A stretch of 52,187 nt of DNA from a virus (IMGVR_UViG_3300025015_000015); one strand, 5' to 3'. Counted from the first letter of the stretch, positions 35,267-52,187 are shown. A program made the numbers and translations. Notes: a model not told the origin generated them from the letters alone.

Positions 35267-35635
35267 ATGTCTATTTCTTCTTCACAATTTGATTCTTTAT
35301 TTAAACCTATTTCACAAGAAGAAATTCTTCAAAGAAGACTTTCTAATTGTGTTAGAAATTCTGATGGTACTTATTCTTCTGATGGTGATGTTGATTTAAC
35401 TAAATTACCGGTTAAATTTAAATATGTAAAAGGTAGTTTTTATTGTTATAATAATCAGTTAACTTCTTTAGAAGGTTCTCCACAAGAAGTTGGCGATAGT
35501 TTTTATTGTTCTCATAATCAGTTAACTTCTTTAGAAGGAGCACCACAAGAAGTTGGTGGTGATTTTTACTGTTCTTATAATTCTGTTCCATGTGAAAAAT
35601 TAATGAAAACTGTTAAAAGAAGTTATTTAAAATAA
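35267..35635 (+). CDS. LRR-like 21-aa repeat protein, copy 1 (2 LTSLEG repeats)
   Basis: Conserved N-cap MSISSSQFDSLFKP and C-cap VPCEKLMKTVKRSYLK; 5-aa deletion in the N-cap. Confidence 0.85.
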   Translation: MSISSSQFDSLFKPISQEEILQRRLSNCVRNSDGTYSSDGDVDLTKLPVKFKYVKGSFYCYNNQLTSLEGSPQEVGDSFYCSHNQLTSLEGAPQEVGGDFYCSYNSVPCEKLMKTVKRSYLK

Positions 35636-35645
35636 AGGAAATTAA

Positions 35646-36359
35646 ATGTCACGAACTTTTGTATTAAATGGTGAAGAAGTTACAAACCTTGAATGGATTA
35701 AAACCGAATTCCAGCCTTTAACTTTAGCTACACCTGATGATACTTTGAATCAGATGTGTGAAAATGCTATTAGGTATTGGAATACAAATTCTGCTTATAA
35801 GGTATCAACATTAGTAGATTATACTTCAGGTTTAAAAAGGATTCAAATTCCTGTTGAAATTAAGAGTGTTTGTGCCGTTTATCCAACTAAGGTTCAGTCG
35901 TATGTTTGGAATGATCATCCTCTTTGGACTTTAACTGGAATTGCAATTATTGATAGTGTAACTACAGATTTAATTCTTACATCTGAAGCATTTAAGACGT
36001 TTAGACTTTATGTCGGTTCCAATTTTGATTGGACTTTTGATAGATCAAAAGACTCATCCGTTGGTGGTTATCTTTATGTTATGAATCTTCCTTCTACCTC
36101 ACAAGGAGTTATTGTGGTAGGGACAAAGAGAATTCTACCCGATGAAGTAATTCGTTGTGATCATATAAGTGATTGGATTCTAAGATATTATAAAGCACTT
36201 ACAAAGCAGGTTGAAGGGAATACTCTTCGGAAGGTTGGTATAATTAATGTTCCTAATGATGGTGGTGACCTATTTACCGAGGGCATGAATGAACAAAAAG
36301 AACTTAAAGAAGAATTAGCTAAAAATGGCAGGTGGTCTTGTTTTATTGCAAGGAAGTAA
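35646..36359 (+). CDS. Neck/head-completion protein, gp13-like
   Basis: Follows the capsid gene; AIRYW, WILRYYKALTKQVEGNTLRK...P..GG.L..EG..E..EL.EEL pattern. Confidence 0.7.
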   Translation: MSRTFVLNGEEVTNLEWIKTEFQPLTLATPDDTLNQMCENAIRYWNTNSAYKVSTLVDYTSGLKRIQIPVEIKSVCAVYPTKVQSYVWNDHPLWTLTGIAIIDSVTTDLILTSEAFKTFRLYVGSNFDWTFDRSKDSSVGGYLYVMNLPSTSQGVIVVGTKRILPDEVIRCDHISDWILRYYKALTKQVEGNTLRKVGIINVPNDGGDLFTEGMNEQKELKEELAKNGRWSCFIARK

Positions 36360-36592
36360 TGATGTTTAGTTTTTTTTATTTGAAAGGATATTAAAATTAG
36401 TTGAAGCTATTGTGCTTCCTCCACCACCACAGAAATTGATTAAATTCTGATGTTATTGATGAAATTAAAGATAGAAAAGATGTTAAAACAGTTAAGTCAA
36501 TGATATATTCAGTTGGTGGTGATTTTTGTTATAATAATCAAGTTTCTATTAATAAACTGAAGAAGACAGTTAGAAGAAGTTATTTAAAATAA
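36359..36592 (+). pseudogene. Chimeric remnant: frameshifted leader + copy of 39342 C-terminus + diverged LRR C-cap
   Basis: About 36450-36520 matches about 40066-40136; ends GGDFCYNNQ...KTVRRSYLK*; T8 run and a stop break the 5' part. Confidence 0.7.
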
Positions 36593-36602
36593 AAGGAATT
36601 AA

Positions 36603-37175
36603 ATGTCTATTTCTTCTTCACAATTTGATTCTTTATTTAAACCTATTTCACAAGAAGAAGTTCTTCAAAGAAGACTTTCTAATTGTATTAAGAATTCTGA
36701 TGGTACTTATTCTTCTGATGGTGATGTTAATTTAAGTAATTTAGGTTTAACTAAATTACCGGTTAAATTTAAATATGTAAAAGGTAATTTTTACTGTTCT
36801 CATAATAAATTGACTTCTTTAGAAGGTGCTCCACAAGAAGTTGGTGGTGGTTTTGTTTGTTCTTATAATCAGTTAACTTCTTTAGAAGGAGCACCACAAA
36901 AAGTTGGTGGTAGTTTTTATTGTTATAATAATAAGTTAACTTCTTTAGAAGGTGCTCCACAAGAAGTTGGTGGTGATTTTAATTGTTCTGATAATAAATT
37001 GACTTCTTTAGAAGGATCTCCACAAGAAGTTGGTGGTGATTTTTATTGTTCTTATAATAAGTTAACTTCCTTAGAAGGTGTTCCTCAAAAAGTTGGCGGT
37101 GATTTTTACTGTTCTGGTAATCCTGTTCCATGTGAAAAATTAATGAAAACTGTTAAAAGAAGTTATTTAAAATAA
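36603..37175 (+). CDS. LRR-like repeat protein, copy 2 (5 repeats)
   Basis: Same caps; 63-bp periodicity. Confidence 0.88.
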   Translation: MSISSSQFDSLFKPISQEEVLQRRLSNCIKNSDGTYSSDGDVNLSNLGLTKLPVKFKYVKGNFYCSHNKLTSLEGAPQEVGGGFVCSYNQLTSLEGAPQKVGGSFYCYNNKLTSLEGAPQEVGGDFNCSDNKLTSLEGSPQEVGGDFYCSYNKLTSLEGVPQKVGGDFYCSGNPVPCEKLMKTVKRSYLK

Positions 37176-37186
37176 AGGAATATATC

Positions 37187-37777
37187 ATGCATTTTGATTT
37201 AATATTTGAAAAAGTTATTAATGAAAACACAAGAAGTATAAGGCTTATAAAACTTATTAGAAGAGTTTATACAGATTTAAATAAACAGATTACCCCAGAT
37301 AAACTTGATGTATTTAAAGCATTGAATGAATTAAAAGATTTTTTTTCCGAAATTGTATTACCGTATGAGAAAGATCCTAGTAAACTAAGTAAAGATCCTT
37401 TTCAATCTGGAAGCAGCATGAAAAGGACGATGATTAAATATGGAGATAGAATTAAACAAATTGATGACGCTATTAATTCCGATGATATTGGAGAGCTAAT
37501 TGCCGCTCTTGATTCTTCTATAGATCAAATGCATGTTGATATGCATTTCTTTGAACAACTTAGAAGTAATATACATGCTAGTATTCTTCATGGAAGAGGG
37601 GCAGAGGAAAAGGATTTGGATAATATAAATGCATTAATTAGTTTACTAGTTTCAATGGGGAAAGTTCCCAAGTTTCCAAAAACTGATATTCATGGAAGAT
37701 CAAATATTGATCCAGAAATATCAATAGAAAAATTACGTAGTGATCAGGAAATTGTTAATAAATATAAGGATAAATAA
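37187..37777 (+). CDS. Helical hypothetical protein with leader MHFDLIFEKVINE
   Basis: First 12 codons identical to those of 41153. Confidence 0.65.
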   Translation: MHFDLIFEKVINENTRSIRLIKLIRRVYTDLNKQITPDKLDVFKALNELKDFFSEIVLPYEKDPSKLSKDPFQSGSSMKRTMIKYGDRIKQIDDAINSDDIGELIAALDSSIDQMHVDMHFFEQLRSNIHASILHGRGAEEKDLDNINALISLLVSMGKVPKFPKTDIHGRSNIDPEISIEKLRSDQEIVNKYKDK

Positions 37778-37893
37778 TGTCACGAACTTTTGTATTAAAT
37801 GGTGAAGAAGTTACAAACCTTGAATGGATTAAAACCGAATTCCAGCCTTTAACTTTAGCTACACCTGATGATACTTTGAATCTGGTGCAATAA
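37776..37893 (+). pseudogene. Duplicated 5' fragment of the gp13-like neck gene
   Basis: 37776-37882 identical to 35645-35751; stop at 37893. Confidence 0.85.
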
Positions 37894-37899
37894 GAGCAG

Positions 37900-38073
37900 T
37901 AGATGGAAAAATGGAATTTAATATTGAAGGTGATGGTTTAAAACATAGAAAAGAAGATGGATGTAATGGTGGTTAAAATTTTTATAATTGGATAAAGAGA
38001 AATAATTTTCCACCAAATCTTCAAGTTTTATGTTGGAATTGTAATTGTGGTAAGATGGTTATTGGAAATAATT
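37900..38073 (+). pseudogene. HNH endonuclease remnant
   Basis: GDGLKHRKE..GG*NFYNWIKRNNFPPNLQVLCWNCNCGK with an in-frame TAA. Confidence 0.7.
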
Positions 38074-38075
38074 AA

Positions 38076-39338
38076 ATGATTAGTTTTTATAATATATTTG
38101 AAAAGATTATTGGTAAAGGGATATGTGAAGCTACATATTCAGAAATTGGAAGAAAACAATTAAGTATAACTAAACTTTTTCCAACATTTCCTGAACGAAT
38201 GAAAGCTGTTCAGGATCGTGGTGGTGTTCATTTGGTGGATACCGATAAAAGTATACTTCATTTTAAAGTTCATAGTGGCACTAAGGATTTGTGGTATGAA
38301 AATGGAATACAGTTTAAAGGACTTACAAACATATTAAAGAATCTTATTTATCTTGATAGGTCTGTTTGGAAAGAAGATCGATCTAATATTGATTTTCGTA
38401 AATTAGCAATGTCTTTATTGGACAATGCTGAAATTAGATTAAGTTGTAGTTGTCCGGCAATTCAATACTGGGGTGGAAATTATATTCTTTCAAGACCTAA
38501 GCGTGATGCTAAAATTGGAGAACCAGAAAATAGACCACCAGTTCAAAGGAATCCTCGTGAATACGGTGCAACATGTAAGCATGGGGCTAATTTATTAAAG
38601 GCTCTTCCTTTTTATGGCCCAACTATTGCTTCCTGGTTAAAGGAATTTCACGCTAAAGAGATAGCTGGAATAGTTAAAGATTATAAGACTGAGATTGCCA
38701 GAATTAAAGGAAAGAAAACAAAGGCTGTAGAAGAACCGGAAAAGGCTAAAGCTCCTGGAAAAGAACCAACAAAGACTGAACCAGCCAAGGAAAAGCCAAA
38801 GGAAGGTACTCCAAAGGTCAAGGAAAAACCAAGGAAAGCCAAAGAAGAGAAACCGGAGGTTAAAATAAGTGCTGAAGTAAAGAAAGAACCTAAAAAGGAT
38901 AAAGAAGAGAAGGAGTCAATTTTAAGGTTTAATTCCCTATCAAAAATAATTGAGGATCATAGTAAAACTATAAGTGGTGGTTTTATACACAAAGATGGTT
39001 ATTTAATTTCTATAAAATCCTCTCATTATGATTATATTTCTTCTTGGGCTGAAAGGAACAATGTAGATGAATTTCCAGAAGATAAAATGATGAAACAATT
39101 TTATGATAAAACTGGATATGTTGATTTTGTACTTTTTGAACCAAAAATTGAATTTGATGTAAGAATTTTTTCAAGGATAACTAATAAACAGTTGGAAACA
39201 ATTAAAAATAAAAGTATTTTATACAATACTTTTTATTGGGATATTTGGGGGGAGGGTAAGGACAATAGATTAAAAAGTGGACGTGATTTTAATAGTCTTG
39301 AGTTAGCAATTAGAGAATTTGGATTATTGAGAGATTAA
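38076..39338 (+). CDS. SWIM zinc-finger protein with K/E/P-rich linker
   Basis: SCSCP...RNP...TCKHG (CxC...CxH). Confidence 0.7.
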   Translation: MISFYNIFEKIIGKGICEATYSEIGRKQLSITKLFPTFPERMKAVQDRGGVHLVDTDKSILHFKVHSGTKDLWYENGIQFKGLTNILKNLIYLDRSVWKEDRSNIDFRKLAMSLLDNAEIRLSCSCPAIQYWGGNYILSRPKRDAKIGEPENRPPVQRNPREYGATCKHGANLLKALPFYGPTIASWLKEFHAKEIAGIVKDYKTEIARIKGKKTKAVEEPEKAKAPGKEPTKTEPAKEKPKEGTPKVKEKPRKAKEEKPEVKISAEVKKEPKKDKEEKESILRFNSLSKIIEDHSKTISGGFIHKDGYLISIKSSHYDYISSWAERNNVDEFPEDKMMKQFYDKTGYVDFVLFEPKIEFDVRIFSRITNKQLETIKNKSILYNTFYWDIWGEGKDNRLKSGRDFNSLELAIREFGLLRD

Positions 39339-39341
39339 ATA

Positions 39342-40190
39342 ATGGGTTATTATAATTTAATTAATAAAATTAAAAATATGTTAAAAGAAGATACCACAAT
39401 GTCCACCATTTCTTATCTCCCATCTCAGGTTGGTGTTGTTAAGGCATTTATTGGTGATTTATCCAAGGAAAAAGATGATTGGGATCTTGAAGTTTTGGAT
39501 GGTAAGGATTATAAGAGTGTAAAGTTTGGAGGAAAATCTTCTATTAATGTTCTTCATAAGTATTGGGATTCGTTTAATAAATTGTTTGGTGGAAAATTAG
39601 AGCACGGTAAATCATTAAAAGTTAAAGGATTATTTGAGGCTAATGTTGATGAACTTAAAGCTATTAGATCAGAATTAATGCGTGCCATCCATAATTTTTT
39701 TAATTTTAGAAAGTTTAAGGTTTTACGTTTAATATATACGAATTTTAGAAATTATTTTAAGGTTAATAATACATCAAGTCCACGTTATGTTGTTGCATTA
39801 AATGATATTGATAGAGGAATTTTAGATTTATACGGTAAGATCCTTAAGGAGTATGGTGAGGATAGAGGAACTCTTGAAATGATGGTTACTGCATTTCAAG
39901 AGCAAAAACCGTTAGGTAAATTTACATTATTTGGGAAGAATGATTTTATTTGTGGTTTGAAGGCTGAAAGTCGTACTAATGGTGTTACTTTGGTATTAGA
40001 ACTTGGTATTGATATTAATGATGTAGGTGGATCAATTCAACAGTCTTTATATGTTGGAAATCCTAATGTTATTGATGAAATTAAAGATAGAAAAGATGTT
40101 AAAACAGTTAAGTCAATGATATATCCAGTTGGTGGTATATTTACCGAAAGTTTCTTTAAAGATTTACATGAATTGATTATGGAGAATTAA
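39342..40190 (+). CDS. Hypothetical protein
   Basis: 282-aa ORF; its C-terminal segment is duplicated near 36450. Confidence 0.65.
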   Translation: MGYYNLINKIKNMLKEDTTMSTISYLPSQVGVVKAFIGDLSKEKDDWDLEVLDGKDYKSVKFGGKSSINVLHKYWDSFNKLFGGKLEHGKSLKVKGLFEANVDELKAIRSELMRAIHNFFNFRKFKVLRLIYTNFRNYFKVNNTSSPRYVVALNDIDRGILDLYGKILKEYGEDRGTLEMMVTAFQEQKPLGKFTLFGKNDFICGLKAESRTNGVTLVLELGIDINDVGGSIQQSLYVGNPNVIDEIKDRKDVKTVKSMIYPVGGIFTESFFKDLHELIMEN

Positions 40191-41141
40191 ATGTCTATTT
40201 CTTCTTCACAATTTGATTCTTTATTTAAACCTATTTCACAAGAAGAAGTTCTTCAAAGAAGACTTTCTAATTGTATTAAGAATTCTGATGGTACTTATTC
40301 TTCTGATGGAAATGTTGATTTAAGTAATTTAGGTTTAACTAAATTACTGGTTAAATTTAAATATGTAAAAGGTAATTTTAATTGTTCTGATAATAAATTG
40401 ACTTCTTTAGAAGGTGCTCCACAAGAAGTTGGTGGTAGTTTTTATTGTTATGATAATAAGTTAACTTCTTTAGAAGGTTCTCCACAAGAAGTTGGTGGTT
40501 ATTTTGATTGTAATAATAATCAGTTAACTTCCTTAGAAGGATCTCCACAAAAAGTTGGTGGTGATTTTAATTGTTCTCATAATAAATTGACTTCTTTAGA
40601 AGGTGCTCCACAAGAAGTTGGTGGTAGTTTTTATTGTTATGATAATAAGTTAACTTCTTTAGAAGGATCTCCACAAGAAGTTGGTGGTGATTTTGATTGT
40701 AATAATAATCAGTTAACTTCTTTAGAAGGTTCTCCACAAGAAGTTGGCGATAGTTTTTACTGTTCTGATAATAAGTTAACTTCTTTAGAAGGAGCACCAC
40801 AAGAAGTTGGCGATAGTTTTTATTGTTATAATAATAAGTTAACTTCTTTAGAAGGTTCTCCACAAGAAGTTGGTGGTAATTTTAATTGTTCTGGTAATCA
40901 GTTAACTTCTTTAGAAGGTTCTCCACAAGAAGTTGGCGATAGTTTTTACTGTTCTGATAATAAGTTAACTTCTTTAGAAGGAGCACCACAAGAAGTTGGT
41001 GGTGATTTTGATTGTAATAATAATCAGTTAACTTCTTTAGAAGGAGCACCACAAGAAGTTGGTGGTAGTTTTTACTGTTCTCATAATTCTGTTCCATGTG
41101 AAAAATTAATGAAAACTGTTAAAAGAAGTTATTTAAAATAA
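40191..41141 (+). CDS. LRR-like repeat protein, copy 3 (11 repeats)
   Basis: 316 aa = copy 2 + 6 x 21 aa. Confidence 0.88.
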   Translation: MSISSSQFDSLFKPISQEEVLQRRLSNCIKNSDGTYSSDGNVDLSNLGLTKLLVKFKYVKGNFNCSDNKLTSLEGAPQEVGGSFYCYDNKLTSLEGSPQEVGGYFDCNNNQLTSLEGSPQKVGGDFNCSHNKLTSLEGAPQEVGGSFYCYDNKLTSLEGSPQEVGGDFDCNNNQLTSLEGSPQEVGDSFYCSDNKLTSLEGAPQEVGDSFYCYNNKLTSLEGSPQEVGGNFNCSGNQLTSLEGSPQEVGDSFYCSDNKLTSLEGAPQEVGGDFDCNNNQLTSLEGAPQEVGGSFYCSHNSVPCEKLMKTVKRSYLK

Positions 41142-41152
41142 AGGAATATATC

Positions 41153-41794
41153 ATGCATTTTGATTTAATATTTGAAAAAGTTATTAATATTAAAGAGAGC
41201 GAAAGTAATGCTCGGAAATTATATTCTGATAAAATTCCTGAAGATATTCTTAATAAATTGATTGAGGCAGATCCAACCAAAACAAAGAAATACATTGAGT
41301 GGATGTGTAAACAATATGTTAGTGATCCAGAAAGAATTACCCATATAATTGATGTTGTTAAATTATTTAATAGTTTTGTTGAGAAAAATTTAATTAAAGG
41401 TTCTGATTCGGATATTAATAAATATAAAACTTTAGATGAAATTGACTCGGTAATTTCGTCAAAACAAGATGTAAAAACAAAAAGTGAAGAGGAAAGGGAA
41501 ATTAAGTCATCCGGAGTTGATAAAGTTTACGAAGATGAAAATATTTTAATAGTTCATCCTAAAACATATGAAGCTTCCTGTAAATATGGGGCAGGAACAA
41601 AATGGTGTACTGCTTCCATTACTAGAAGTTATTGGGAATCATATTGGAGTGCTGGAGTTAATCTTTATTATATTATTGATAAAGTTAATAATAAAAAGTA
41701 CGCCGTTGCAGTTCATCCTAATGGACAAAAAGAAGGTTTTACTGAAACTGATAAATCAATAAGTTATGATAAAATTAAATCATTGTTTGTTTAA
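41153..41794 (+). CDS. Uncharacterised large-phage protein with YGAGTKWCTA motif
   Basis: DPTKTKKYIEWMCK...ASCKYGAGTKWCTA. Confidence 0.6.
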   Translation: MHFDLIFEKVINIKESESNARKLYSDKIPEDILNKLIEADPTKTKKYIEWMCKQYVSDPERITHIIDVVKLFNSFVEKNLIKGSDSDINKYKTLDEIDSVISSKQDVKTKSEEEREIKSSGVDKVYEDENILIVHPKTYEASCKYGAGTKWCTASITRSYWESYWSAGVNLYYIIDKVNNKKYAVAVHPNGQKEGFTETDKSISYDKIKSLFV

Positions 41795-41799: not shown

Positions 41800-42624
41800 A
41801 TGTCTATTTCTTCTTCACAATTTGATTCTTTATTTAAACCTCTTCCTAAAGAAGATTTAATTTCTAGGCGTCTTTCTAATTGTGTTAGAAATGAAGATGG
41901 AACTTATTCTTCTGATGGTGATGTTAATTTAAGTAATTTAGGTTTAACTAAATTACCGGTTAAATTTAAATATGTAAAAGATGATTTTAATTGTTCTGAT
42001 AATCAGTTAACTTCCTTAGAAGGATCTCCACAAAAAGTTGGTGGTATTTTTTACTGTTCTGATAATAAGTTAACTTCTTTAGAAGGAGCACCACAAGAAG
42101 TTGGCGATAGTTTTTATTGTTCTCATAATCAGTTAACTTCTTTAGAAGGAGCACCACAAAAAGTTGGTGGTTATTTTGTTTGTTCTAATAATAAGTTAAC
42201 TTCTTTAGAAGGAGCACCACAAGAAGTTGGTGGTGATTTTGATTGTAATAATAATAAGTTAACTTCTTTAGAAGGAGCACCACAAGAAGTTGGTGGTGAT
42301 TTTGATTGTAATAATAATCAGTTAACTTCTTTAGAAGGTTCTCCACAAGAAGTTGGTGGTATTTTTTATTGTTATAATAATAAGTTAACTTCTTTAGAAG
42401 GTTCTCCACAAGAAGTTGGCGATAGTTTTTATTGTTCTCATAATCAGTTAACTTCTTTAGAAGGAGCACCACAAGAAGTTGGTGGTGATTTTGACTGTTC
42501 TAATAATAAGTTAACTTCTTTAGAAGGAGCACCACAAAAAGTTGGTGGTTATTTTGTTTGTTCTGGTAATCCTGTTCCATGTGAAAAATTAATGAAAACT
42601 GTTAAAAGAAGTTATTTAAAATAG
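41800..42624 (+). CDS. LRR-like repeat protein, copy 4 (9 repeats)
   Basis: 274 aa = copy 2 + 4 x 21 aa; N-cap slightly diverged. Confidence 0.88.
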   Translation: MSISSSQFDSLFKPLPKEDLISRRLSNCVRNEDGTYSSDGDVNLSNLGLTKLPVKFKYVKDDFNCSDNQLTSLEGSPQKVGGIFYCSDNKLTSLEGAPQEVGDSFYCSHNQLTSLEGAPQKVGGYFVCSNNKLTSLEGAPQEVGGDFDCNNNKLTSLEGAPQEVGGDFDCNNNQLTSLEGSPQEVGGIFYCYNNKLTSLEGSPQEVGDSFYCSHNQLTSLEGAPQEVGGDFDCSNNKLTSLEGAPQKVGGYFVCSGNPVPCEKLMKTVKRSYLK

Positions 42625-43071: not shown

Positions 43072-45270
43072 ATGTATTTCGATAAACTATTTGATAGAGT
43101 TAATAAAGCTGTTCGTGAATCCAGGGTAAATGAGACTGAAGGTCAATATAATCCACGTGGTACTAAGTCAAAATATGAAGATAATAAATTCAAGGTTTTT
43201 GGTATGCGTGAACCTCTTGATGATTATATAATAAAAGCTGCTCCAACACATAGAACTAAACTTGCCGGTTATATCGATGCACTTCATGTAATAAGAAATA
43301 ATTTTGTTATATATGTTCATTTGAGTGAAGTTGGTAAATATATTAAAGGTTCAATTGAAACTGCTGCATTAAAGTTATTAAATCAGTATGAAACTGAAAA
43401 GAAAGTAAAGCCTGATGAAGATGATTTAACTCCTGAAGATGAAGAGGATATTCAGAATGAAATAGAAGCAGAAGAAGAAAGAATGGAAAGAGAAGGAGAA
43501 TTTGATGTTAAAGAATCAAAAATAAATGAAAGTGAGGAAGAAGTTGAATTTACTGATGAAGAACAAGTCGAAGATTTGATTAAAACAATATTAATTCAAT
43601 TTAATGAAGTAGTAAAGAAACGTGAAGTTAGATTTGATAGTTGGGCTGAATATATAGCTGATATTATTGCTGATAATGATGTTTTGATTAAAGCTGCTAA
43701 AACTGAAGAATTTAAAAGTTCATTAAAGAAAAATGGTCTTGAAAAACTAATTAAATATATTGATAATTCCTTAAGAGGAATTGAAGATGATTTAACTCCT
43801 GAAGATGAAGAGGAACAGGAAAGAGGGGAAGTAGATGAAGGAATAGAGCCTGATTTCAATAAGGATGGTGAAGAGGTTAAAATTAAGAAATTGGTAGAGG
43901 GTGTTCGTGAATTGATAGGTGAAGTTCCCGGTATAAATCCTCAAGATCAGGAAATTCTTCAATGGGCTTTGAAGAATGATGTAATTTATGATCAATTCCC
44001 AGAAGACGATGTTATGATTGATGCTCTTGCTTTGCTTGACATGACTGGAATGGAAGATAAAGATATCGGTGATGCAGATGATGTTGGAATTAAAGCTTAT
44101 TATCTTAAATATATAATGCTTCCGCGTGCTAAAAAAGAATATGCTGAACAAAATGGTGGTGAAGAAATATCGGATGTTGAGTTAGATAGTCATGAAGAAG
44201 GAGAGAGTGGAATCGATTGTGATATGTGTGAAGAATTTGTGAAAGAAGAGGATATTAAAGTTGATAAATTTGATAATACAGTGTGTCCAATTTGTAAAAG
44301 GATTTCTGACATATTGTCTGAATATGGATTAAATTGGGAAGATGTTGGTGAAGAAGAAGGTGAAGAATTAAGAACAGCGGTAAAGAATGATGATGAATTT
44401 AGGATTGAATCAATTATTAATAGTTTAAAACACTTTGATGTTCATGAATCAAAAGTTGATGAAGCTAAAATAGAAGTACCTGATAGTGTAAAGACGTTTT
44501 CAATTATAAGTCCTGGAATGGGTGATCCTGGTGGAACATATTGGGAGTTAAAAGTAAACGGTAAGACATACAAGAAATGTAAAGATAGGGAAGAATGTTA
44601 TACTGAACTTGCTAAATATAAGCCTGTAGAAGTAAAAGAAAATGGTGGTTTTGCTAAAAAGGCTGGAAATAAACCTGAAGATTTTGATAAGGATCAACTT
44701 GCTGTTGGAATAAAAGTTGAAATGGAGCATACGGACAATAAGAGCAAAGCCCAAAAAATTGCTATGGATCATTTAATAGAGGATCCTAAGTATTATACTA
44801 AATTAAAGAAGATGGAAGCTGGTGCTTGTAATGAATCTATTAATGATGATCCAACAAAAGAGGATATGTTAGCTACTCTAGAAGAAATATTTGGTCTTGA
44901 AGATGGATTTGAAGAGGATGCAGAAATAGCAATGTATTGGTTTGCCAATCATAATCACGGTGGTCAGGATAGTAATCTTTATTCTGTTCTTTCTACTTCA
45001 GAATTTAAACCAGGACCAAATTCATCTTTTGAATCAGAAGGTGATGGTATGGTTAAGATGATGTATGATACTTTAACTGATAAATATATTATAAGTCCAA
45101 ATATAAATGATGTTGATGAAGCTACTGAGCCTGAGAGTGATTTTTATACAGTAAATCCAAAAGTGGTTGATAAAAGAGAAGCCGATGAGTTAGCAAAGAA
45201 CATAGATGCGATAGTAATAGAAAACCCTGATCATAGTTTTAGTGTCATTAAGAAAAAGGGATCTAAATAA
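43072..45270 (+). CDS. Large acidic putative head protein containing a DUF5661 domain
   Basis: QLAVGIKVEMEHTDNKSKAQKIAMDHLIEDPKYYTKLKKME; leader MYFDKLFDRVNKAVRES; VDEGIEPDFNKD. Confidence 0.7.
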   Translation: MYFDKLFDRVNKAVRESRVNETEGQYNPRGTKSKYEDNKFKVFGMREPLDDYIIKAAPTHRTKLAGYIDALHVIRNNFVIYVHLSEVGKYIKGSIETAALKLLNQYETEKKVKPDEDDLTPEDEEDIQNEIEAEEERMEREGEFDVKESKINESEEEVEFTDEEQVEDLIKTILIQFNEVVKKREVRFDSWAEYIADIIADNDVLIKAAKTEEFKSSLKKNGLEKLIKYIDNSLRGIEDDLTPEDEEEQERGEVDEGIEPDFNKDGEEVKIKKLVEGVRELIGEVPGINPQDQEILQWALKNDVIYDQFPEDDVMIDALALLDMTGMEDKDIGDADDVGIKAYYLKYIMLPRAKKEYAEQNGGEEISDVELDSHEEGESGIDCDMCEEFVKEEDIKVDKFDNTVCPICKRISDILSEYGLNWEDVGEEEGEELRTAVKNDDEFRIESIINSLKHFDVHESKVDEAKIEVPDSVKTFSIISPGMGDPGGTYWELKVNGKTYKKCKDREECYTELAKYKPVEVKENGGFAKKAGNKPEDFDKDQLAVGIKVEMEHTDNKSKAQKIAMDHLIEDPKYYTKLKKMEAGACNESINDDPTKEDMLATLEEIFGLEDGFEEDAEIAMYWFANHNHGGQDSNLYSVLSTSEFKPGPNSSFESEGDGMVKMMYDTLTDKYIISPNINDVDEATEPESDFYTVNPKVVDKREADELAKNIDAIVIENPDHSFSVIKKKGSK

Positions 45271-46988: not shown

Positions 46989-47936
46989 ATGGCAAGTAGT
47001 TTTCTTTACACAATGGACATTGGTCTTCGTACTTTGTTATATTCAAAGTTTGGTGATATTCTTGGAATTTCCACACAATCTTCTTTTGAAGAGACTAATA
47101 TAAACAAAGGAGTAATTTTAATACCTAAAGAAACAGCTTTAAGAGAAGTTTCCGAAAAACGTGGTAAAAATTTTCTTGAATTCATTAATTTATGGCGTGT
47201 TGGAACTGAATATTCCTGGTCCAGGAATAATACTTATGTTTCACGGAGGGGTATTGATCTTCCTGTTATTGTTGGAAATCGTTCCTCATATACCACGGTT
47301 AAAGCTGTTCCAATGGATCTTAATTATGAAATATGTTTTTGGAGTAAGGATCTTGATAAAATAAATCTGTGTACAGAACGTTATATGTTTTGGATTCATA
47401 ATAATCCAAAGCTTAATATAACCTATTCTGATTTATATCCTCTTGCTTTTGATATTCATTTTAGTCCGGTTAATGATGAGTCAACAATAGCAAGGAAATA
47501 TACAGAAGGTTTAATATACGTAGCTAGTGCATCAATCAAAGTGGATGGTTGGACGTTTAATAGCGAAACTTTTAACTCTGGAATTATTTCTAAAATTAGA
47601 GTAACTACATATGACAAGGATGAAGTAGAGAATTATTATGAAATATGTGTAGAGGATGAAGATCAGAATGTTGAATTAGCTGCGGCATTAAAGATGCTGC
47701 GACAAAATTTATATGGAATTTTCTCAATTAATGCTTCATTAAATACTATTAAGATTCTTGGAGAATTTGCCTCCGATTTTCTTGAAGGAAAGAAGATTTT
47801 TATTGAAAACTCTACAGATAATAATGGAGTTTATACCATCATTTCCTCAACACAAACAGATGGTTTTACATATGTTGAGTTGGATGAATCTTTAACTAGT
47901 GATACTAATGACGGAAATTTATACTTTGTTGAGTAA
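46989..47936 (+). CDS. Tail completion/terminator protein (gp15-like) with C-terminal extension
   Basis: PMDLNYEICFWSKDLDKIN...ERY pattern; directly upstream of the sheath gene. Confidence 0.6.
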   Translation: MASSFLYTMDIGLRTLLYSKFGDILGISTQSSFEETNINKGVILIPKETALREVSEKRGKNFLEFINLWRVGTEYSWSRNNTYVSRRGIDLPVIVGNRSSYTTVKAVPMDLNYEICFWSKDLDKINLCTERYMFWIHNNPKLNITYSDLYPLAFDIHFSPVNDESTIARKYTEGLIYVASASIKVDGWTFNSETFNSGIISKIRVTTYDKDEVENYYEICVEDEDQNVELAAALKMLRQNLYGIFSINASLNTIKILGEFASDFLEGKKIFIENSTDNNGVYTIISSTQTDGFTYVELDESLTSDTNDGNLYFVE

Positions 47937-47968
47937 TTAAAAAGGTCAAAATAAATTAGGAGATTATT

Positions 47969-49594
47969 ATGGGAGTTTATCTTAGTCCTGGTGTTTATCC
48001 GATTGAAAAAGATATTTCTGATGTTGTTCCAGCCGTAGCTACTTCTGCTGCTGCACTTGTTGGCTATTCGGCAAAAGGCAACACTGATGATATCGTACTT
48101 ATCACAACTGGTCAGCAATTTATTGATGAGTACGGAGAACCGGATCCAACCACGGGTCATTATTTCCATTATACTGCACTTGCTTATTTGGCAAAAGGAT
48201 CTCAACTCTATTGTTTGAGAGTTCATAATGGTGCTTTATATGGTGGTATATATATAATGTCGTCAACTTCTAGTGAAGTTAATGAAGCTTTAACTGTGGG
48301 TCAATCCGTATCTACTTTTGTTGCTGCTAGCGGTTTGGATGATGATATTGTATTTCAAATTCTTGGAGCAAATCCGGGTGTGTGGAATGATAAGCTTGAA
48401 GTTGTAATTCAGAATGTTAAGACTGGATCTGAATCCGAAGCTACAGAACAGTATACATTTGAAATAGTTGTATATCATCAGGATGATGATGGTAATTGGT
48501 CTCAAGTTGAAAAATGGAAGGTTTCTAGAAAGAATAAACTTGATGGATTTGGAAAGCAGATGTATCTTGAGGATAAGATTAATGGAATAAGCAAGTATAT
48601 CGTTGTTGCTGATAGTGCTTTAGCTGATACTGTTCTTCCACAAGCTCAAGCTGTTGCTTTAGTTTTTGATGGTGGATATGATGGTGCTGCTATTTCTTCT
48701 GCTCAGTTAATACTTGGTTGGGCTGAATTTATAAATCCTGATAAGGTTGATGTTAGAATTCTTATCAATGGTGGTGAAACAGCAGTTGCAGTTCAGACAG
48801 AAATGAAAGTAGTTGCAGAAACAAGAGCGGATTGTATGTGCATTCTTGACGTACCATATGAAAATATAACTTCTGTTGCTAGTATGGTAACGTGGAGAGA
48901 TGATACACAGAATTTTAATTCTAGTTATTGTGCATTATATGCTCCGTGGGTTCAAATTTATGATTCTTTTAACGATCAGCTTGTTGATGTTCCGGTGTCC
49001 GGATATGTAGCTGCACAGTATGCTTATAATGATTATATTGGAAACCCATGGGATTCTCCTGCTGGATTTGATCGTGGAACTTTGAATGTTATAGCTCTTG
49101 CCGGTAGTGTGGTGTTTACTCAGGGTGAACGTGATGTGTTGTATCAGGCCCAAATCAATCCAATTCAGAAGTTCAGTGGTAGTGGTATTGTGGTTTGGGG
49201 TGACGTTACTCAACAGGTGAAGTCAAGTGCATTTAGTCATGTTAATGTTAGAAGGTTGTTTATTGTTCTTGAAAAATCAATGAGTATTTCACTTCGTCAA
49301 TTTGTGTTTGAAGGAAATACAATTGAAACAAGGACTAGAGTCATTTCAATGCTTGAAGAATATCTTGATAGGTTATCTTCTCAAGGTGCTTTCCAAACTG
49401 AATCTGGTGATCGTGGCTATCGTGTTTTGTGTGATACCACTAACAATACCTCTGTTGTAATTGATGCCAATCAGTTGAATGTTGATGTTTTCATTAAGCC
49501 GGTTAGGTCCATCAATTTTATTCAGTTACAGACTATTGCTACTCCTACTGGAGCATCGTTTGAAGAACTGATATCACGCGGAGTAATGTTCTAA
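47969..49594 (+). CDS. gp18: Contractile tail sheath protein
   Basis: YLSPGVYPIEKD, PAGFDRG, LYQAQINPI, WGDVT, NVRRLF, FEGN, DVFIKPVRSINFI. Confidence 0.95.
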   Translation: MGVYLSPGVYPIEKDISDVVPAVATSAAALVGYSAKGNTDDIVLITTGQQFIDEYGEPDPTTGHYFHYTALAYLAKGSQLYCLRVHNGALYGGIYIMSSTSSEVNEALTVGQSVSTFVAASGLDDDIVFQILGANPGVWNDKLEVVIQNVKTGSESEATEQYTFEIVVYHQDDDGNWSQVEKWKVSRKNKLDGFGKQMYLEDKINGISKYIVVADSALADTVLPQAQAVALVFDGGYDGAAISSAQLILGWAEFINPDKVDVRILINGGETAVAVQTEMKVVAETRADCMCILDVPYENITSVASMVTWRDDTQNFNSSYCALYAPWVQIYDSFNDQLVDVPVSGYVAAQYAYNDYIGNPWDSPAGFDRGTLNVIALAGSVVFTQGERDVLYQAQINPIQKFSGSGIVVWGDVTQQVKSSAFSHVNVRRLFIVLEKSMSISLRQFVFEGNTIETRTRVISMLEEYLDRLSSQGAFQTESGDRGYRVLCDTTNNTSVVIDANQLNVDVFIKPVRSINFIQLQTIATPTGASFEELISRGVMF

Positions 49595-49604
49595 GGAGTG
49601 AAAT

Positions 49605-49973
49605 ATGTTTGACGAATTATTTGAAAAAATAAAAGAAGCTGTAGAATCTGAAGTTGATATGTATAAAAAAGTATTAGAAGAATGGCCCGATGTTCAGCAA
49701 TTAAAAAAGGTAAATCGTGATTTAATATATAAAATTTCCAATATTGAGAATGTTGTGGTGCATCATGTGTGGTATGAAAATAGAATGCCTTGCTTTACTG
49801 TTAGTTTTGTTGATCAATCAAAAAAGGAATGGAAGCTAAGTTTTTGGGAAGTTAATGAATCAGTTATTATGAATGCTAAAGGTTCAAAAGTTTCATCTTC
49901 ATCAAAGAAAAGATTCATTAATAATTTAAAACATTTGGTTGAAGAAAGTGAAAATATAAATATTGAAGAATAA
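49605..49973 (+). CDS. Hypothetical protein inserted between sheath and tube, leader MFDELFEKIKEAVES
   Basis: SD aggag. Confidence 0.6.
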   Translation: MFDELFEKIKEAVESEVDMYKKVLEEWPDVQQLKKVNRDLIYKISNIENVVVHHVWYENRMPCFTVSFVDQSKKEWKLSFWEVNESVIMNAKGSKVSSSSKKRFINNLKHLVEESENINIEE

Positions 49974-50001
49974 GTTATGTTTGATAACCGGAGGTTATAC
50001 T

Positions 50002-50556
50002 ATGGTAATGTCAATTGATGCACTTAAATTTAATCTTACAAATCCAGCAAGAGATTATGAATGGGAAGTTACTTTTCCAACTATGCTTGGTGGTGGGGAT
50101 AAGAAAGCTATGTCAATTCGTTGCCGTAGTGCTGTTATTCCTGGTCGAGGCTTTGGAGAAATACTTATTCCGTTTAGAGGTACTCCAGGTATAAGTATTC
50201 CAGGTAAAGCTACAGTTCCACATGCCTGGACTGCTATGTTTATGGAAGGTACAGATAAAAAGACATTTACTGCCATTAATGCTTGGATGGAGAGAATTAG
50301 GCAGATTAGAAGTGGTATTGGTACTTCAGATTTGCTTATCAAGTCTGATTTTATTATGAAGATGTTAGATCGTGCCGGAAATGCATGGTTATCTCTCAAG
50401 ATGGTTGGTGCTTATCCAAGAAATATAGATGATACACCCATTGCACAAGATGCTGAAGGTGTTGTTACTTATAGTGTTACTTGGGCCTATGATTATTGGG
50501 AGGAAGCTAGTTCTTCAATTTCCGTTAATGTTGGTGTGTCTATTCCAGGTATTTAA
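50002..50556 (+). CDS. gp19: Tail tube protein
   Basis: NPARDYEWEV, CRSAVIPG, GAYPRNID, YSVTWAYDYWE; ATG 50002 after ggagg. Confidence 0.88.
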   Translation: MVMSIDALKFNLTNPARDYEWEVTFPTMLGGGDKKAMSIRCRSAVIPGRGFGEILIPFRGTPGISIPGKATVPHAWTAMFMEGTDKKTFTAINAWMERIRQIRSGIGTSDLLIKSDFIMKMLDRAGNAWLSLKMVGAYPRNIDDTPIAQDAEGVVTYSVTWAYDYWEEASSSISVNVGVSIPGI

Positions 50557-50580
50557 TTAAAATAGAAACCATGTCTAACT

Positions 50581-51126
50581 ATGGATACAAATTTTAATTT
50601 ATCTAAGATTTCAAAGACATGGGATCTCCAACGGACCTTTGATTGGCAATTAATAATGCCTCATAATATAAGTGGAATTAATGGTATGTATGTGTCTCAG
50701 TTTTGCCAATCGGTTTATTTTGGAAATTACAACATTCCTGAAGTTGAACAGTTTAGATACGGTCCCCATCAGAGATTCTTTCCAGGATTAATGAATATTG
50801 ACAGAGTTTCATTGGAGTTTTTAAGTCCGATGGATAATGCTGTTTATTTATATTTCATGGAATGGCGATATCTTGTTGTTGACAGGGACGGTTTTTATAG
50901 TCCTAAAAATAGGTATACTAGAAATATACATGTTGAAACTACTACTCAAAGTGGTATAATTAATAATAGATATGAGTTGAAAAGATGTTTTCCCACAAAA
51001 TTACCTGAAAATGATCTAAATCAGGCTACTGAAGAAGTTTTAAGATATAAAATAGAATTATCTGTAGATGAAATTGAATTAACAGGACTAGATAATATTT
51101 CATGGAAGAGAAATCAAACAATTTAA
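50581..51126 (+). CDS. Tube-like baseplate/tail-tube initiator protein
   Basis: gp19-like fold pattern (FMEWRYLV, CFPTKL, IELSVD). Confidence 0.65.
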   Translation: MDTNFNLSKISKTWDLQRTFDWQLIMPHNISGINGMYVSQFCQSVYFGNYNIPEVEQFRYGPHQRFFPGLMNIDRVSLEFLSPMDNAVYLYFMEWRYLVVDRDGFYSPKNRYTRNIHVETTTQSGIINNRYELKRCFPTKLPENDLNQATEEVLRYKIELSVDEIELTGLDNISWKRNQTI

Positions 51127-51142
51127 CTTTGAAAGGTTTAAA

Positions 51143-51895
51143 ATGGGAAAAGAAGACTTCTTTTCAATTTCTCTTCCGTCAAGATGCATTCCTTATAATA
51201 TCAATCCTGACGCTGTTAAAATTAGGCCGTATTGTGGTGAAGATCAAATTATTCTTTCCACTATTAATTCTTCAAATTTAGACAAAAAATTCCTTGTTGT
51301 TATTGAACGAGTTCTAAAGGGTGTGGATCCAAAGAGTGTTACTCTTGGTGATCGATTATATATAATGCTTTGGGAGTATATTAATTCATATACTAATATC
51401 GTTAATGTTAATTATGTTTGTTCTTATTGTCTAAACGAGGTAAAAGTTCAAGTTGATCTTAATACTATGGCTACCATTGAATTACCAAAGGATTTCAAGT
51501 TTCCATATCCAATAACTCTTTCCAATGGAAAGATTATTAATCTTAGACCATTTAATGTTGGAGATACTATTTCAATAAGTGAATACATAGATGGTCATGA
51601 TGATCATCATCTTTATAAGTATGCAAGAACAATAACAGATGAAGGTAAGATTGAAGATAAAGTTCAAATGTTGAAGGATTTTTCAACTAAGGATCTTGTT
51701 CTTATTTATGCTTTCCATGAAAAATTCTTTCATGGATTAGACATGAAAGCCAAAGTTGAATGTCCAAAATGTAAGGTTGAAGCAGAGAAAGAAGGATCTA
51801 AAATTGATCCGGAGGAAATAGAAATACCCTTTCGACTTGACTTTTTATTTCCAACAGGATCCACAATTACAGACGCTTTTGGAAGTAGAATTTAA
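51143..51895 (+). CDS. Baseplate hub assembly protein, gp26-like
   Basis: ISLPSR, IRPY, LTLGDR-like, CSYC and CPKC, PFRLDFLFP. Confidence 0.75.
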   Translation: MGKEDFFSISLPSRCIPYNINPDAVKIRPYCGEDQIILSTINSSNLDKKFLVVIERVLKGVDPKSVTLGDRLYIMLWEYINSYTNIVNVNYVCSYCLNEVKVQVDLNTMATIELPKDFKFPYPITLSNGKIINLRPFNVGDTISISEYIDGHDDHHLYKYARTITDEGKIEDKVQMLKDFSTKDLVLIYAFHEKFFHGLDMKAKVECPKCKVEAEKEGSKIDPEEIEIPFRLDFLFPTGSTITDAFGSRI

Positions 51896-52058
51896 TTTGT
51901 GTAGATTACCTGGTTTTAATATTAGAGATATTAGAGAAAAGCTTACTACAAGGGAGATTGATTGGTATATTTCAAGGTTAGCCAGGCAAATTCAAGATGA
52001 TGAAAATAAAATTAGTGGCGGTATTGGATTTACTAAATTAGGTGGAAAGACATTTTAG
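51837..52058 (+). CDS. Baseplate hub assembly chaperone-like small protein (start uncertain)
   Basis: Follows gp26-like; EIDWYISRL pattern. Confidence 0.45.
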   Translation: MTFYFQQDPQLQTLLEVEFNLCRLPGFNIRDIREKLTTREIDWYISRLARQIQDDENKISGGIGFTKLGGKTF

Positions 52059-52060
52059 TT

Positions 52061-52187
52061 ATGTCTATTTCTTCTTCACAATTTGATTCTTTATTTAAAC
52101 CTATTTCACAAGAAGAAGTTCTTCAAAGAAGACTTTCTAATTGTATTAAGAATTCTGATGGTACTTATTCTTCTGATGGAAATGTTG
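52061..52187 (+). CDS. LRR-like repeat protein, copy 5 (truncated by window end)
   Basis: 127 bp identical to 40191-40317. Confidence 0.85.
   Translation, partial: MSISSSQFDSLFKPISQEEVLQRRLSNCIKNSDGTYSSDGNV

Follow-up and report, generated by a model that had tools for sequence, protein, structure and literature searches.

An uncultured phage from groundwater encodes five paralogous LRR genes that are scattered among the genes for the virus particle. The stretch of DNA analyzed here (the window) is 52,187 nucleotides long, and the genes within it very probably represent a diversifying, recombining family of LRR binders. The fullest account, to which we give slightly less than even confidence, is that of a germline family of small, cytoplasmic, acidic LRR binders in T4-superfamily myoviruses, the members of which recombine, are linked to a PcfJ-like protein, and are probably loaded into the head. 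Exchange among the dispersed copies, through homologous recombination, unequal crossing-over, and gene conversion, keeps the caps and scaffold uniform within each genome and also alters the number and order of units. Selection diversifies four predicted concave-face residues per unit, such that each copy has a different predicted binding surface. The LRRs would serve as target-recognition modules working with the neighboring PcfJ-like protein, as fusions in relatives suggest, and the set would be synthesized late, alongside the virion proteins, would probably be packaged in the head, and would act on host proteins as the next infection begins.

Organization and fold of the LRR genes

Open reading frames (ORFs) were present at all five positions at which a reading of the sequence alone had placed LRR copies, each on the + strand. 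Copy 1 (35267..35635; 122 amino acids [aa]) lies directly 3′ of the major capsid gene and the terminator hairpin of that gene and consists of an N-cap, two full units (35435-35560), a terminal half-unit, and a C-cap. Copy 2 (36603..37175; 190 aa) carries 5 units (36786-37100), and copy 3, as placed in the window assembly (40191..41141; 316 aa), carries 11 units (40374-41066) with a higher-order period of 189 bp. Copy 4 (41800..42624; 274 aa), whose N-cap is the most diverged, carries 9 units (41983-42549), and copy 5 (52061..52187) is truncated by the window end, with an N-cap identical to those of copies 2 and 3. Every full copy has its own ribosome-binding site, start, N-cap, C-cap, and stop codon. 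Alignment bore out the claim that the caps are near-identical across copies and indicated cassette boundaries, with inter-copy identity running from the ribosome-binding site to the stop codon. Copies 2 and 3 have in common the C-cap and the ribosome-binding site and first ~15 codons of the following gene. The LRR proteins are acidic (pI 4.4-6.6).

Tandem Repeats Finder reported 63-bp arrays of 2.3, 5.3, 11.4, and 9.2 copies in copies 1 to 4, and the LTSLEG anchors were spaced exactly 21 aa apart. Units start with x-F-x-C-x-x-N-x-L-T-S-L, and when 27 units were compared, the F, C, N, L, and L residues were invariant in 27/27, 13 positions lacked variation, positions 8, 15, 18, and 21 were nearly binary, and positions 1, 3, 5, and 6 held the diversity (entropy of 1.4-2.1 bits). 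Moreover, pN/pS was 2.05 at positions 1, 3, 5, and 6, 0.62 at the four near-binary positions, and 0.00 at the 13 scaffold positions, where pS was 0.16, and these ratios are indicative rather than a formal test because the units are non-independent paralogs under gene conversion. Both entropy and the per-position check of selection therefore peaked at the four x positions to which non-conservative variation had been said to be limited. The same positions were also the most variable in four other phage genomes (G003, L017, G004, and L020) and correspond to LRR positions 3, 5, 7, and 8. The x residues of the LRR pattern LxLxxNxL line the concave ligand-binding face, and by that rule the side chains of the variable residues are probably exposed on the classical concave face.

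AlphaFold2 modeled copy 2 with a pLDDT of 94.9 and a pTM of 0.86 and predicted two short strands per 21-aa turn, recurring each 21 residues at the F-x positions. Pfam LRR_4 matched copies 2, 3, and 4 at 29.8, 50.7, and 53.2 bits (cut-off of 27), and copy 1, with its 2 units, fell below detection by that model. The best Foldseek matches were the LRR domains of IpaH7.8, SspH1, IpaH1.4, and YopM (E of 5.5e-4 and weaker; TM of 0.4-0.63), and 50/50 of the PDB matches listed were LRR proteins. By sequence, the top PDB matches were InlJ (3bz5; E of 4.5e-22) and then SspH2 (3g06; E of 5.4e-21). Consistent with the solenoid proposed earlier, model confidence, LRR_4 scores, and PDB matches to InlJ and IpaH/SspH agreed, and we conclude that the copies are LRR solenoids, as confidently predicted by modeling.

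The segment LxxLxCxxNxLxxL that is conserved in 21-residue units of InlJ/IRREKO was present in the window units (consensus for these bacterial LRRs in PMC2946307). Full assignment to IRREKO was rejected, as the units read L-E-G-(A/S)-P-Q-(E/K)-V-G-(G/D) in place of the variable segment LDLxx(N/L/x)xx with its nested 10/11-residue periodicity, and the IRREKO-type Leu at LRR position 16 and second Lx(L/C) were absent from the window units. Compared with the "Bacterial" class, LxxLxVxxNxLxxLP(D/E)LPxx (20-22 residues), the length and the Pro at LRR position 18 fit, but Pro15 and Leu17 are missing and one additional residue precedes the first hydrophobic position. We conclude that, as judged from its residues, the unit is a hybrid whose conserved segment has the cysteine ladder of the InlJ type and whose variable segment is IpaH/YopM-like.

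Recombination among copies and the reliability of the arrays

The remnant noted near ~36510 is genuine and constitutes a recombination scar (36450..36593, + strand), in which a diverged LRR C-cap (…KTVRRSYLK*) follows in frame on ~70 nt that duplicate the 3′ end of gene 39342-40190, the two parts meeting at a GTTGGTGG microhomology. As had been claimed, the same module types appear in varying order from gene to gene, and exact tracts shared between copies run to 110-119 nt, the longest being 119 nt. In a tree of N-caps, the four window copies fell together (95/93), as did the G004 copies (98/95), the L017 copies, and the G001/L013 set, irrespective of locus. The caps thus group by genome rather than by locus, which indicates concerted evolution. 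Shared tracts, the microhomology scar, and the clustering of caps by genome all support the proposed intra- and intergenic recombination.

We consider it very unlikely that the repertoire is largely an artefact in which short-read assemblers moved fewer real arrays between loci and the reordering of modules is not biological. Logan contigs from four runs spanned the unique genes as well as the junctions at the caps, with 100% identity across the boundaries of unique DNA and caps in several runs and studies, but the contigs broke inside every array, such that they upheld the junctions and not the array interiors. Arrays 1, 2, and 4 were nevertheless recovered exactly in independent assemblies: an identical copy 1 protein in L044, with a 122-aa gene in L026/L027 (other assemblies of the same phage); an identical 190-aa copy 2 protein in three assemblies (L026, L029, and L031); and copy 4 at 825/825 nt in L045, with which partial assemblies L047, L048, and L052 were consistent. 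The unit counts of 2, 5, and 9 in the sequence-only reading therefore stand. The 11-unit copy 3 gene is identical over 951/951 nt to a gene that other assemblies put at the fifth locus, where a 316-aa, 11-unit gene is followed by a 592-aa gene, and the third locus in one assembly holds a different array of 8 units. The placement, unit number, and unit order of copy 3 are therefore uncertain; copy 3 may truly duplicate copy 5 or may have arisen by a mis-join, and module order, at least that of copy 3, may be partly a product of assembly. Several contigs also have repeat-mediated joins, with L028 and L030 looping round to copy 2 again from an array further downstream and L044 and L046 omitting 5.4-5.6 kb that contain conserved genes. 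Arguing against a general artefact, an N-cap unitig common to copies 2, 3, and 5 had a depth of 67 compared to ~22 for unique DNA in run X3 (~3x), no exact repeat of at least 141 nt occurred within the arrays, and the assemblies together contained five loci and as many different arrays (2, 5, 8, 9, and 11 units). Moreover, independently assembled relatives share the architecture, including an 11-unit gene after p282.

The diversity could in principle be programmed, either by VLR-like copy-choice from donor cassettes or by a retroelement that mutates AAY codons. AAT is among the alleles of each hypervariable codon, all codons there are NNT/NNC, and modules recur across genes. NNT codons, however, reflect the codon bias of an AT-rich genome, and the occurrence of identical modules in separate genes is contrary to what random mutagenesis would yield. 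A diversity-generating retroelement was rejected, as a scan of window ORFs revealed no reverse transcriptase and the adenines of invariant codons were constant (AAT at position 7, GAA, CAA, and TTA identical in 27/27 units). The same scan of window ORFs found no AID/APOBEC-like deaminase and no transposase, in agreement with what had been reported for the latter, and the LRR copies included no VLR-type incomplete germline gene or capless donor cassette. The VLR analogy offered earlier is not supported as a mechanism, as each copy forms an entire gene that has a start, caps, and stop of its own and lacks signs of programmed or somatic assembly. Programmed diversification is largely refuted, and we give it almost no credence. 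We conclude from the gene sequences that the copies are germline paralogs evolving through unequal crossing-over and gene conversion.

The head module and the PcfJ-like protein

The clade that carries the family is one of uncultured T4-superfamily myoviruses, in which it is maintained in the head-neck-tail gene module. Comparison with related phages found LRR genes of 0-11 units at 15 loci on 11 IMG/VR contigs, which hold several such genes in virion modules, and nearly all copies on these contigs lie inside the head-neck-tail module. Sites include positions 3′ of the capsid gene, the gp13-like gene, and p282, 5′ of the sheath gene, and around the baseplate hub, and relatives also have tandem runs of 4 and 9 genes. 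One exception is an L007 copy in a non-structural region, and a homolog in the cultured Vibrio phage VB_VaC_TDDLMA adjoins a DnaB-like helicase gene, not virion genes.

The window encodes a predicted prohead protease, Peptidase_S77 (T4 gp21 family; E of 2e-11), fused to a scaffold-like region (32066..33667, + strand). Seven non-LRR genes of the head-tail module begin with a leader of the type (F/Y)-(D/E)-x-(L/I)-(F/L), a pattern that was picked post hoc and that matched internally once across 14,070 positions. The orphan gene 3′ of copy 2 (37187..37777, + strand; 196 aa) has the head-module leader MHFDLIFEKVINE, and the PcfJ-like protein (41153..41794, + strand; 213 aa) has MHFDLIFEKVINIKE as its leader and an S..YG..TKWC motif that is invariant. 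Most LRR copies of relatives bear the same leader as the head-module proteins, with starts such as MFNELYENI…, MIELLEKML…, MFSHLFEHIL…, and MYYQLFENLI…. The leader on relatives' LRRs and on the window PcfJ-like protein ends in hydrophobic-x-Glu, which would be the kind of site used by a T4-type prohead protease, and both leader and site are conserved across the PcfJ-like family. The five LRR genes of the window lack the leader and start at MSISSSQFDSLFKP, approximately where the LRRs of relatives would begin once cleaved, with a stop codon immediately upstream. We note that the FDxLFxP motif is internal in fusion proteins and therefore belongs to the N-cap rather than being a terminal tag. In T4, diverse internal proteins are loaded via a conserved capsid-targeting sequence that is later removed by gp21 (PMC3012670, PMC9958956). 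The lack of a leader and the acidity of the window LRRs count against the fullest account given above. Delivery of the LRR proteins in the virion is a tentative proposal that we judge to be doubtful rather than probable.

PcfJ-like-LRR fusions occur in P0063 and P0133, the reverse order, LRR-PcfJ-like, occurs at L013:1152, and L018 and L022 encode the two in neighboring genes. Viral Atlas clusters place the PcfJ-like fold N-terminal to LRR, ankyrin, WG, LRV, and DUF4116 repeats. Pfam gave no match for the 213-aa window protein, and PF14284 matched 1/26 members of its family (E of 1.8e-4). AlphaFold DB cluster matches named PcfJ-like had E values of 1e-3 to 9e-3, one Atlas cluster had PcfJ on 33% of members, and a search found no solved relative of the domain. 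Prediction of a complex between the 213-aa protein and copy 4 gave a score of 0.60, compared to 0.00 for the best control, with at least 58% of contacts agreeing across runs and a partner pLDDT of at least 89. When the test was benchmarked, its mark was reached by 51/78 solved complexes and 2/108 mismatched pairs, and passes at 0.60 or lower accounted for only 5/78 solved complexes but for all 4 passing mismatches. The modeled complex weakly supports the pairing with copy 4, and for a partnership of the LRRs with the PcfJ-like protein we consider the chances evenly balanced.

One alternative is that the LRRs are not virion proteins but accessory intracellular binders, produced late or at any time when the structural operons are expressed, which might block a host defense or protease or chaperone assembly, with their location in the module resulting from recombination seeding. 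The window copies are leaderless and acidic, copy 1 sits behind the strong terminator hairpin of the capsid gene (sequence 35180-35260), and the L007 and VB_VaC_TDDLMA genes lie outside virion surroundings, all of which fit such a role. We nonetheless find it somewhat unlikely, as it sits poorly with the concentration of copies in the head-neck-tail module, the leader on most LRRs of relatives, and a PcfJ-like partner with a family-conserved leader and hydrophobic-x-Glu site. It is quite unlikely that the LRRs are instead displayed on the particle exterior as adhesins or accessory receptor-binding modules, with the PcfJ-like domain as the anchor. The nearest analogies would be the repeat-bearing DUF7941 tail proteins of Goslar, in which an N-terminal anchoring module precedes LRR/carbohydrate-binding domains suggested to serve host recognition (PMC13742148), and Hoc-type decoration. 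Display on the exterior is consistent with the joining of one conserved domain to varied repeats (LRR, ankyrin, WG, and LRV) in viral proteins and with LRR genes near neck, sheath, and baseplate genes. Trimerization, fiber, and Ig-like anchoring features were not seen in the LRR proteins, however, which are small and monomer-like, lack an export signal, and have a buried cysteine ladder typical of cytoplasmic/bacterial LRRs; the leader and cleavage-site pattern, moreover, indicates the head interior. Beyond the preferred reading of recombining, PcfJ-like-linked, probably head-loaded binders lies a bolder one, unlikely in our estimation, of modular injected effectors in which a head-packaged PcfJ-like enzyme or adaptor, loaded by means of a cleavable leader, is directed to various host proteins by interchangeable LRR subunits that the phage maintains as a recombining repertoire. 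If true, it would parallel in a virus the IpaH/SspH design of LRR plus effector domain, with the capsid and tail taking the place of a secretion system.

Comparison with known systems

Internalin J of Listeria (3bz5) and IRREKO proteins have the same 21-residue unit, LxxLxCxxNxLTxL, with Cys at LRR position 6 forming a cysteine ladder, but the phage variable segment is L-E-G-x-P-Q-x-V-G and not LDLxx(N/L)xx. Internalin J is a bacterial surface protein, whereas the window LRRs are phage genes and their products are without its signal peptide, Ig-like inter-repeat domain, and cell-wall anchor. IpaH, SspH, SlrP, and YopM likewise have short units (20-22 residues) with proline in the variable segment, and IpaH/SspH-type proteins were the best fold match and, through SspH2, the second-best sequence match. 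In these delivered proteins the LRR provides target recognition beside a separate effector domain, which parallels the PcfJ-like-LRR fusions. The phage proteins differ in having Cys at position 6 in place of Val/Leu and a PcfJ-like partner instead of an NEL E3-ligase domain, and delivery, if any, would be by head and tail rather than by a type III secretion system.

Like T4 with its internal proteins (IPI, IPII, IPIII, and Alt), the window phage encodes a gp21-family (S77) prohead protease, and a short N-terminal leader that terminates in hydrophobic-x-Glu is common to many unrelated head-module proteins. The proposed phage cargo, like that of the hyperplastic IP loci of T-even phages, varies widely and evolves fast, and T4 internal-protein cargo counters host defense (PMC3012670). 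The phage leader nevertheless differs from MKTYQEFIAE, the window LRR copies are leaderless, and T4 internal proteins are small, basic, and DNA-associated, whereas the window LRRs are acidic predicted solenoids and putative head cargo.

Lamprey VLRs and plant NLR/R-gene LRRs resemble the phage family in having a constant scaffold, hypervariable concave positions, and shuffling of whole modules. Somatic assembly of VLRs draws on capless donor cassettes and involves cytidine deaminases, whereas the phage copies are finished germline genes; R-gene clusters, like the phage, undergo unequal crossing-over and gene conversion among paralogs. We conclude that the resemblance is one of R-gene-style paralog evolution and not of VLR assembly. 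Finally, the ankyrin, FNIP/LRR, and BspA-like expansions of giant viruses and huge phages are likewise viral multigene families of repeat binders that vary in repeat number and share their termini, but those genes form tandem arrays, whereas the window copies lie one at a time among conserved structural genes and have a link to a PcfJ-like protein.

LRR genes among the virion genes

The part of the window described here is the head-neck-tail gene module of a myovirus placed distantly in the T4 superfamily, with genes for a Peptidase_S77 protease-scaffold (32066-33667), a Gp23-type major capsid protein (33684-35162), a gp13-like protein (35646-36359; Pfam family found on identical genes), the tail sheath (47969-49594), the tube (49963-50556) and a T4_baseplate hub (51143-51895). 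Interspersed among them are four complete LRR genes (copies 1 to 4; 35267-35635, 36603-37175, 40191-41141 and 41800-42624) and the start of a fifth (52061 to the window end), which, together with a scar at about 36450-36593, agree with the dispersed family proposed by an earlier sequence-only reading. No transposase was found among the window ORFs scanned, as that reading had also stated. The public runs that contain window sequence are groundwater and soil metagenomes.

Copies 1 to 4 carry 2, 5, 11 and 9 repeat units, each exactly 63 bp. Thirteen of the 21 residues in the unit are constant across the 27 units and four positions are near-binary (8, K/Q; 15, A/S; 18, E/K; 21, G/D), while all non-conservative change falls at positions 1, 3, 5 and 6, matching the proposed restriction of variation to the four x positions of the x-F-x-C-x-x-N type unit. 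When phased on the LRR consensus, these variable sites are LRR positions 3, 5, 7 and 8, which by the general rule for LRR structures are the exposed residues of the concave beta-sheet. A Nei-Gojobori count, the per-position check that had been suggested, gave pN/pS of 2.05 at positions 1, 3, 5 and 6, 0.62 at the near-binary positions and 0 at scaffold positions (pS 0.16), a strong contrast rather than a formal test because the units are non-independent and undergo conversion. Four other phage genomes likewise had their greatest variability at these four positions.

AlphaFold2 modeled copy 2 with a pLDDT of 94.9 and two short strands per 21-residue turn. All 50 Foldseek matches listed were LRR proteins, led by domains of IpaH7.8, SspH1, IpaH1.4 and YopM, at modest scores (E of 5.5e-4 and weaker; TM 0.4-0.63), consistent with the predicted LRR solenoid. 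The best solved sequence relatives were internalin J (E 4.5e-22) and SspH2 (E 5.4e-21). Under published LRR class definitions (PMC2946307), the conserved segment of the phage unit shares the cysteine-ladder type of InlJ/IRREKO and its variable segment is proline-containing, as in the "Bacterial" class; judged by its sequence, the unit appears to be a hybrid of the two. The LRR proteins of the window are acidic (pI 4.4-6.6), and no signal peptide was found in them.

The family is very large; more than 7,900 metagenomic proteins matched at an E of ≤1e-5 among 8,000 scored candidates, none of those matches bearing an informative name. Comparison with related phages, another recommended step, indicated that the near-identical gene ends (N-cap and C-cap) of the window family are present at 15 loci on 11 IMG/VR contigs, nearly all inside the virion module, with 0 to 11 units and with tandem runs of four genes on one contig (L017) and nine on another (L020). 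The gene order of the related contig G003 (gp13-like, LRR, LRR, p420, x, p282, 11-unit LRR, p142, p732) nearly mirrors that of the window. In the closest relative (L012; IMGVR_UViG_3300029288_000106), the LRR copy at 1964-2368 is broken and out of frame after two units, with the remaining part behind a TAG stop, which shows gene decay inside the family. A unitless LRR gene of 99 aa, in which the N-cap is joined directly to the C-cap, lies outside the structural module of another related contig (L007:1468-1767). Finally, the cultured Vibrio alginolyticus phage VB_VaC_TDDLMA (PP083315.1) encodes, next to a DnaB-like helicase gene, a 211-aa hypothetical protein (3330-3965) whose repeats are 65% identical to the phage LRR family, and this phage is a possible tractable experimental model.

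Several further features of the region were observed. The major capsid gene is followed by a long G+C-rich hairpin with a T-rich tail (35180-35260), which looks like a terminator or attenuator, and then by LRR copy 1. Promoter and terminator scans of the window, including one for the T4 late-promoter motif TATAAATA, indicated no enrichment and nothing on timing. The 420-aa protein encoded at 38076-39338 (p420) has a CxC…CxH pattern (LSCSCP…GATCKHG) resembling a SWIM zinc finger and a low-complexity center rich in Lys, Glu and Pro, had no Pfam match at an E of 0.01, and is encoded next to p282, a conserved adjacency in all relatives. Three large acidic proteins (28503-30797, 30858-31979 and 43072-45270) have a common internal motif, (E)EGI(A/E)PDFNKDGEE…KKL(V/L)E, which occurs twice in the 764-aa protein and could act in scaffold binding or as a protease site. 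The paralogous proteins encoded at 24169-24699 and 25469-25885 begin MA(N/Q)(E)KNFK(L/I)…IRY, the former gene containing a perfect 18/36-nt tandem repeat that encodes KD(S/A)TVA, and a homologue lies at 3384-3878 of the related contig L002. In two related phages (L002:9989-13121 and L001:9953-12033), the major capsid gene is interrupted by a zinc-finger or endonuclease-like ORF; in L002, the inserted 367-aa frame ends with the last residues of the capsid protein. The arrangement points to a mobile insertion of the intron or intein-like type.

Recombination among copies and the reliability of the arrays

Identity between copies extends from the ribosome-binding site (GGAATTAAATG) to the stop codon. 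For copies 2 and 3, it continues across the spacer and ~15 codons into the following gene, beyond which the two following genes are unrelated. Exactly identical stretches, the longest 110-119 nt, link one copy to another, and a higher-order period of 189 bp is present in copy 3. The scar at 36450-36593 consists of a copied 3′ end of the p282 gene (39342-40190) joined to a diverged C-cap, the junction lying at GTTGGTGG, VGG codons that are common to the repeat. In an N-cap tree of five phage genomes, copies clustered by genome (window copies with support of 95/93, those of the related contig G004 with 98/95) and not by locus, though some loci (those following the capsid gene, the gp13-like gene and p282) are common across genomes. 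Scaffold residues were likewise genome specific (LTTLEGCPQKVGG in G003, LTSLQGAPAHVGG in G004 and LTSLEGAPQEVGG in the window). Because the copies group by genome and the scaffold residues are genome specific, we conclude that the family undergoes concerted evolution via gene conversion and unequal exchange, with binding-face diversity kept, and the recombination between genes that had been proposed from the sequence is upheld. The proposed likeness to lamprey VLRs holds at the level of architecture but not of mechanism. VLR-type somatic assembly and a diversity-generating retroelement were both weighed and rejected, no evidence of either having been found in the 27 units or among the window ORFs scanned.

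Arrays of near-identical units could also arise as assembly artifacts. Logan contigs from four runs covered all unique genes and cap junctions at 100% identity and stopped inside every array, and the N-cap unitig common to copies 2, 3 and 5 had ~3x the depth of unique DNA. Strain comparison of the exact junction pattern found no match in metagenome contigs or viral contigs, and megablast of 37187-40190 found none among GenBank phages. Exact-protein look-ups retrieved over 20 further assemblies of the window's phage, with flanks 99.96-100% identical. Copy 1 was recovered in these assemblies, copy 2 in three complete ones, and copy 4 in one complete assembly (825/825 nt), with four partial assemblies consistent. 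In other assemblies, the 11-unit gene was confined to the fifth locus, flanked by p73 and a 592-aa gene, where it is identical to window copy 3 (951/951 nt), and one assembly (L028) has after p282 a different 8-unit array, four units of which are absent from the window.

Other assemblies contained odd joins: a downstream array wraps into copy 2 (L028 and L030), copy 2 is joined straight to p142 with 5.4-5.6 kb skipped (L044 and L046), or the sequence jumps between arrays (L039 and L042). None of these joins was counted as polymorphism. Since p420 and p282, the genes skipped, are conserved throughout the clade and the breakpoints fall in common unit sequence, repeat-induced mis-joins are at least as likely as real recombinants. 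A joint at 37360>41219 was left out, as it had only 21 letters on one side. We conclude that the dispersed family is real and that the arrays of copies 1, 2 and 4 are solid, whereas locus 3 of the window may hold a genuine second copy of the locus-5 array or may be mis-joined; if it is mis-joined, the array that truly belongs there may be the one of 8 units. Overall the family is real, interesting and probably in part mis-assembled, and the placement and order of such arrays in short-read assemblies are unreliable.

A possible PcfJ-like partner and a leader peptide

A 213-aa protein (41153-41794) is encoded between LRR copies 3 and 4. Its viral family is marked by an invariant S..YG..TKWC motif and remotely resembles PcfJ. 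PcfJ-like and window-type LRR sequences are fused in relatives in both orders (proteins P0063 and P0133 versus L013:1152), the two genes adjoin in contigs L018 and L022, and in viral Atlas clusters the PcfJ-like fold lies N-terminal to ankyrin, WG, LRV, DUF4116 or LRR repeats. The 213-aa protein had no PDB sequence or fold match, and its AlphaFold DB matches were only unnamed or PcfJ-like entries. The product of the gene after copy 2 (p196; 37187-37777) matched nothing above noise in the Atlas, and a leader is the sole part that it has in common with the 213-aa protein. Complex prediction for the 213-aa protein with copy 4 scored 0.60 versus 0.00 for the best control, with contact agreement of at least 58% and partner pLDDT of at least 89. 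In calibration, 51 of 78 solved complexes and 2 of 108 mismatched pairs attained the mark, but those attaining it at ≤0.60 were only 5 of the 78 solved complexes and all 4 mismatches that passed. The prediction weakly suggests that the two proteins may interact.

About ten unrelated genes (28503-49973) encode the N-terminal leader M-x-(F/Y)-(D/E)-x-(L/I)-(F/L)-(E/D)-(K/R)-(V/I/T), for example M-x-F-D-x-L-F-E-K-V, followed within ~15 residues by hydrophobic-x-Glu; leader-bearing genes start at 28503, 30858, 37187, 38076, 39342, 41153, 43072, 45270 and 49605. The leader is kept in L002 and L008 orthologues and in the PcfJ-like family. T4 gp21 cleaves after (L/I)-x-Glu. The leader may serve as a signal for capsid targeting and for cleavage by the S77 protease. 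In T4, a conserved capsid-targeting sequence loads diverse internal proteins and is then removed by gp21 (PMC3012670, PMC9958956). LRR genes of relatives bear such a leader, while those of the window are without one and start approximately where the processed proteins of relatives would start. Because the window's LRR genes are leaderless, we consider virion delivery in this phage rather doubtful; the LRR proteins could be delivered by riding on the leader-bearing partner. The recurrent PcfJ-like fusions and the link to the leader yield concrete, testable hypotheses on possible phage delivery of proteins into cells. Should the LRR proteins target host defense proteins, such repertoires would offer natural inhibitors in abundance, as well as compact binder scaffolds that can be evolved.

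Relation to known binder families

The sequence-only reading was largely right on structure and evolution, and the function of the family is one that we infer. Phages diversify binding proteins via retroelements and tail-fiber mosaicism, and T-even phages also do so via hyperplastic internal-protein loci. The LRR family represents a different route, in which solenoids are seeded between conserved virion genes, recombination homogenizes the family and selection appears to favor change on the binding face. Neither this family, nor phage LRR multigene families, nor LRRs as phage counter-defense or internal proteins were described in the literature searched. A paper on a coral-mucus vibriophage mentions one weak LRR-like protein of the tail module (PMC10945359). 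New relative to that literature are the occurrence in a phage, the dispersal of copies among conserved virion genes, the putative PcfJ-like partner and the head-module leader in relatives. An LRR binder family with module exchange and a hypervariable concave face is itself of an already known kind, exemplified by plant R genes, internalins and VLRs.
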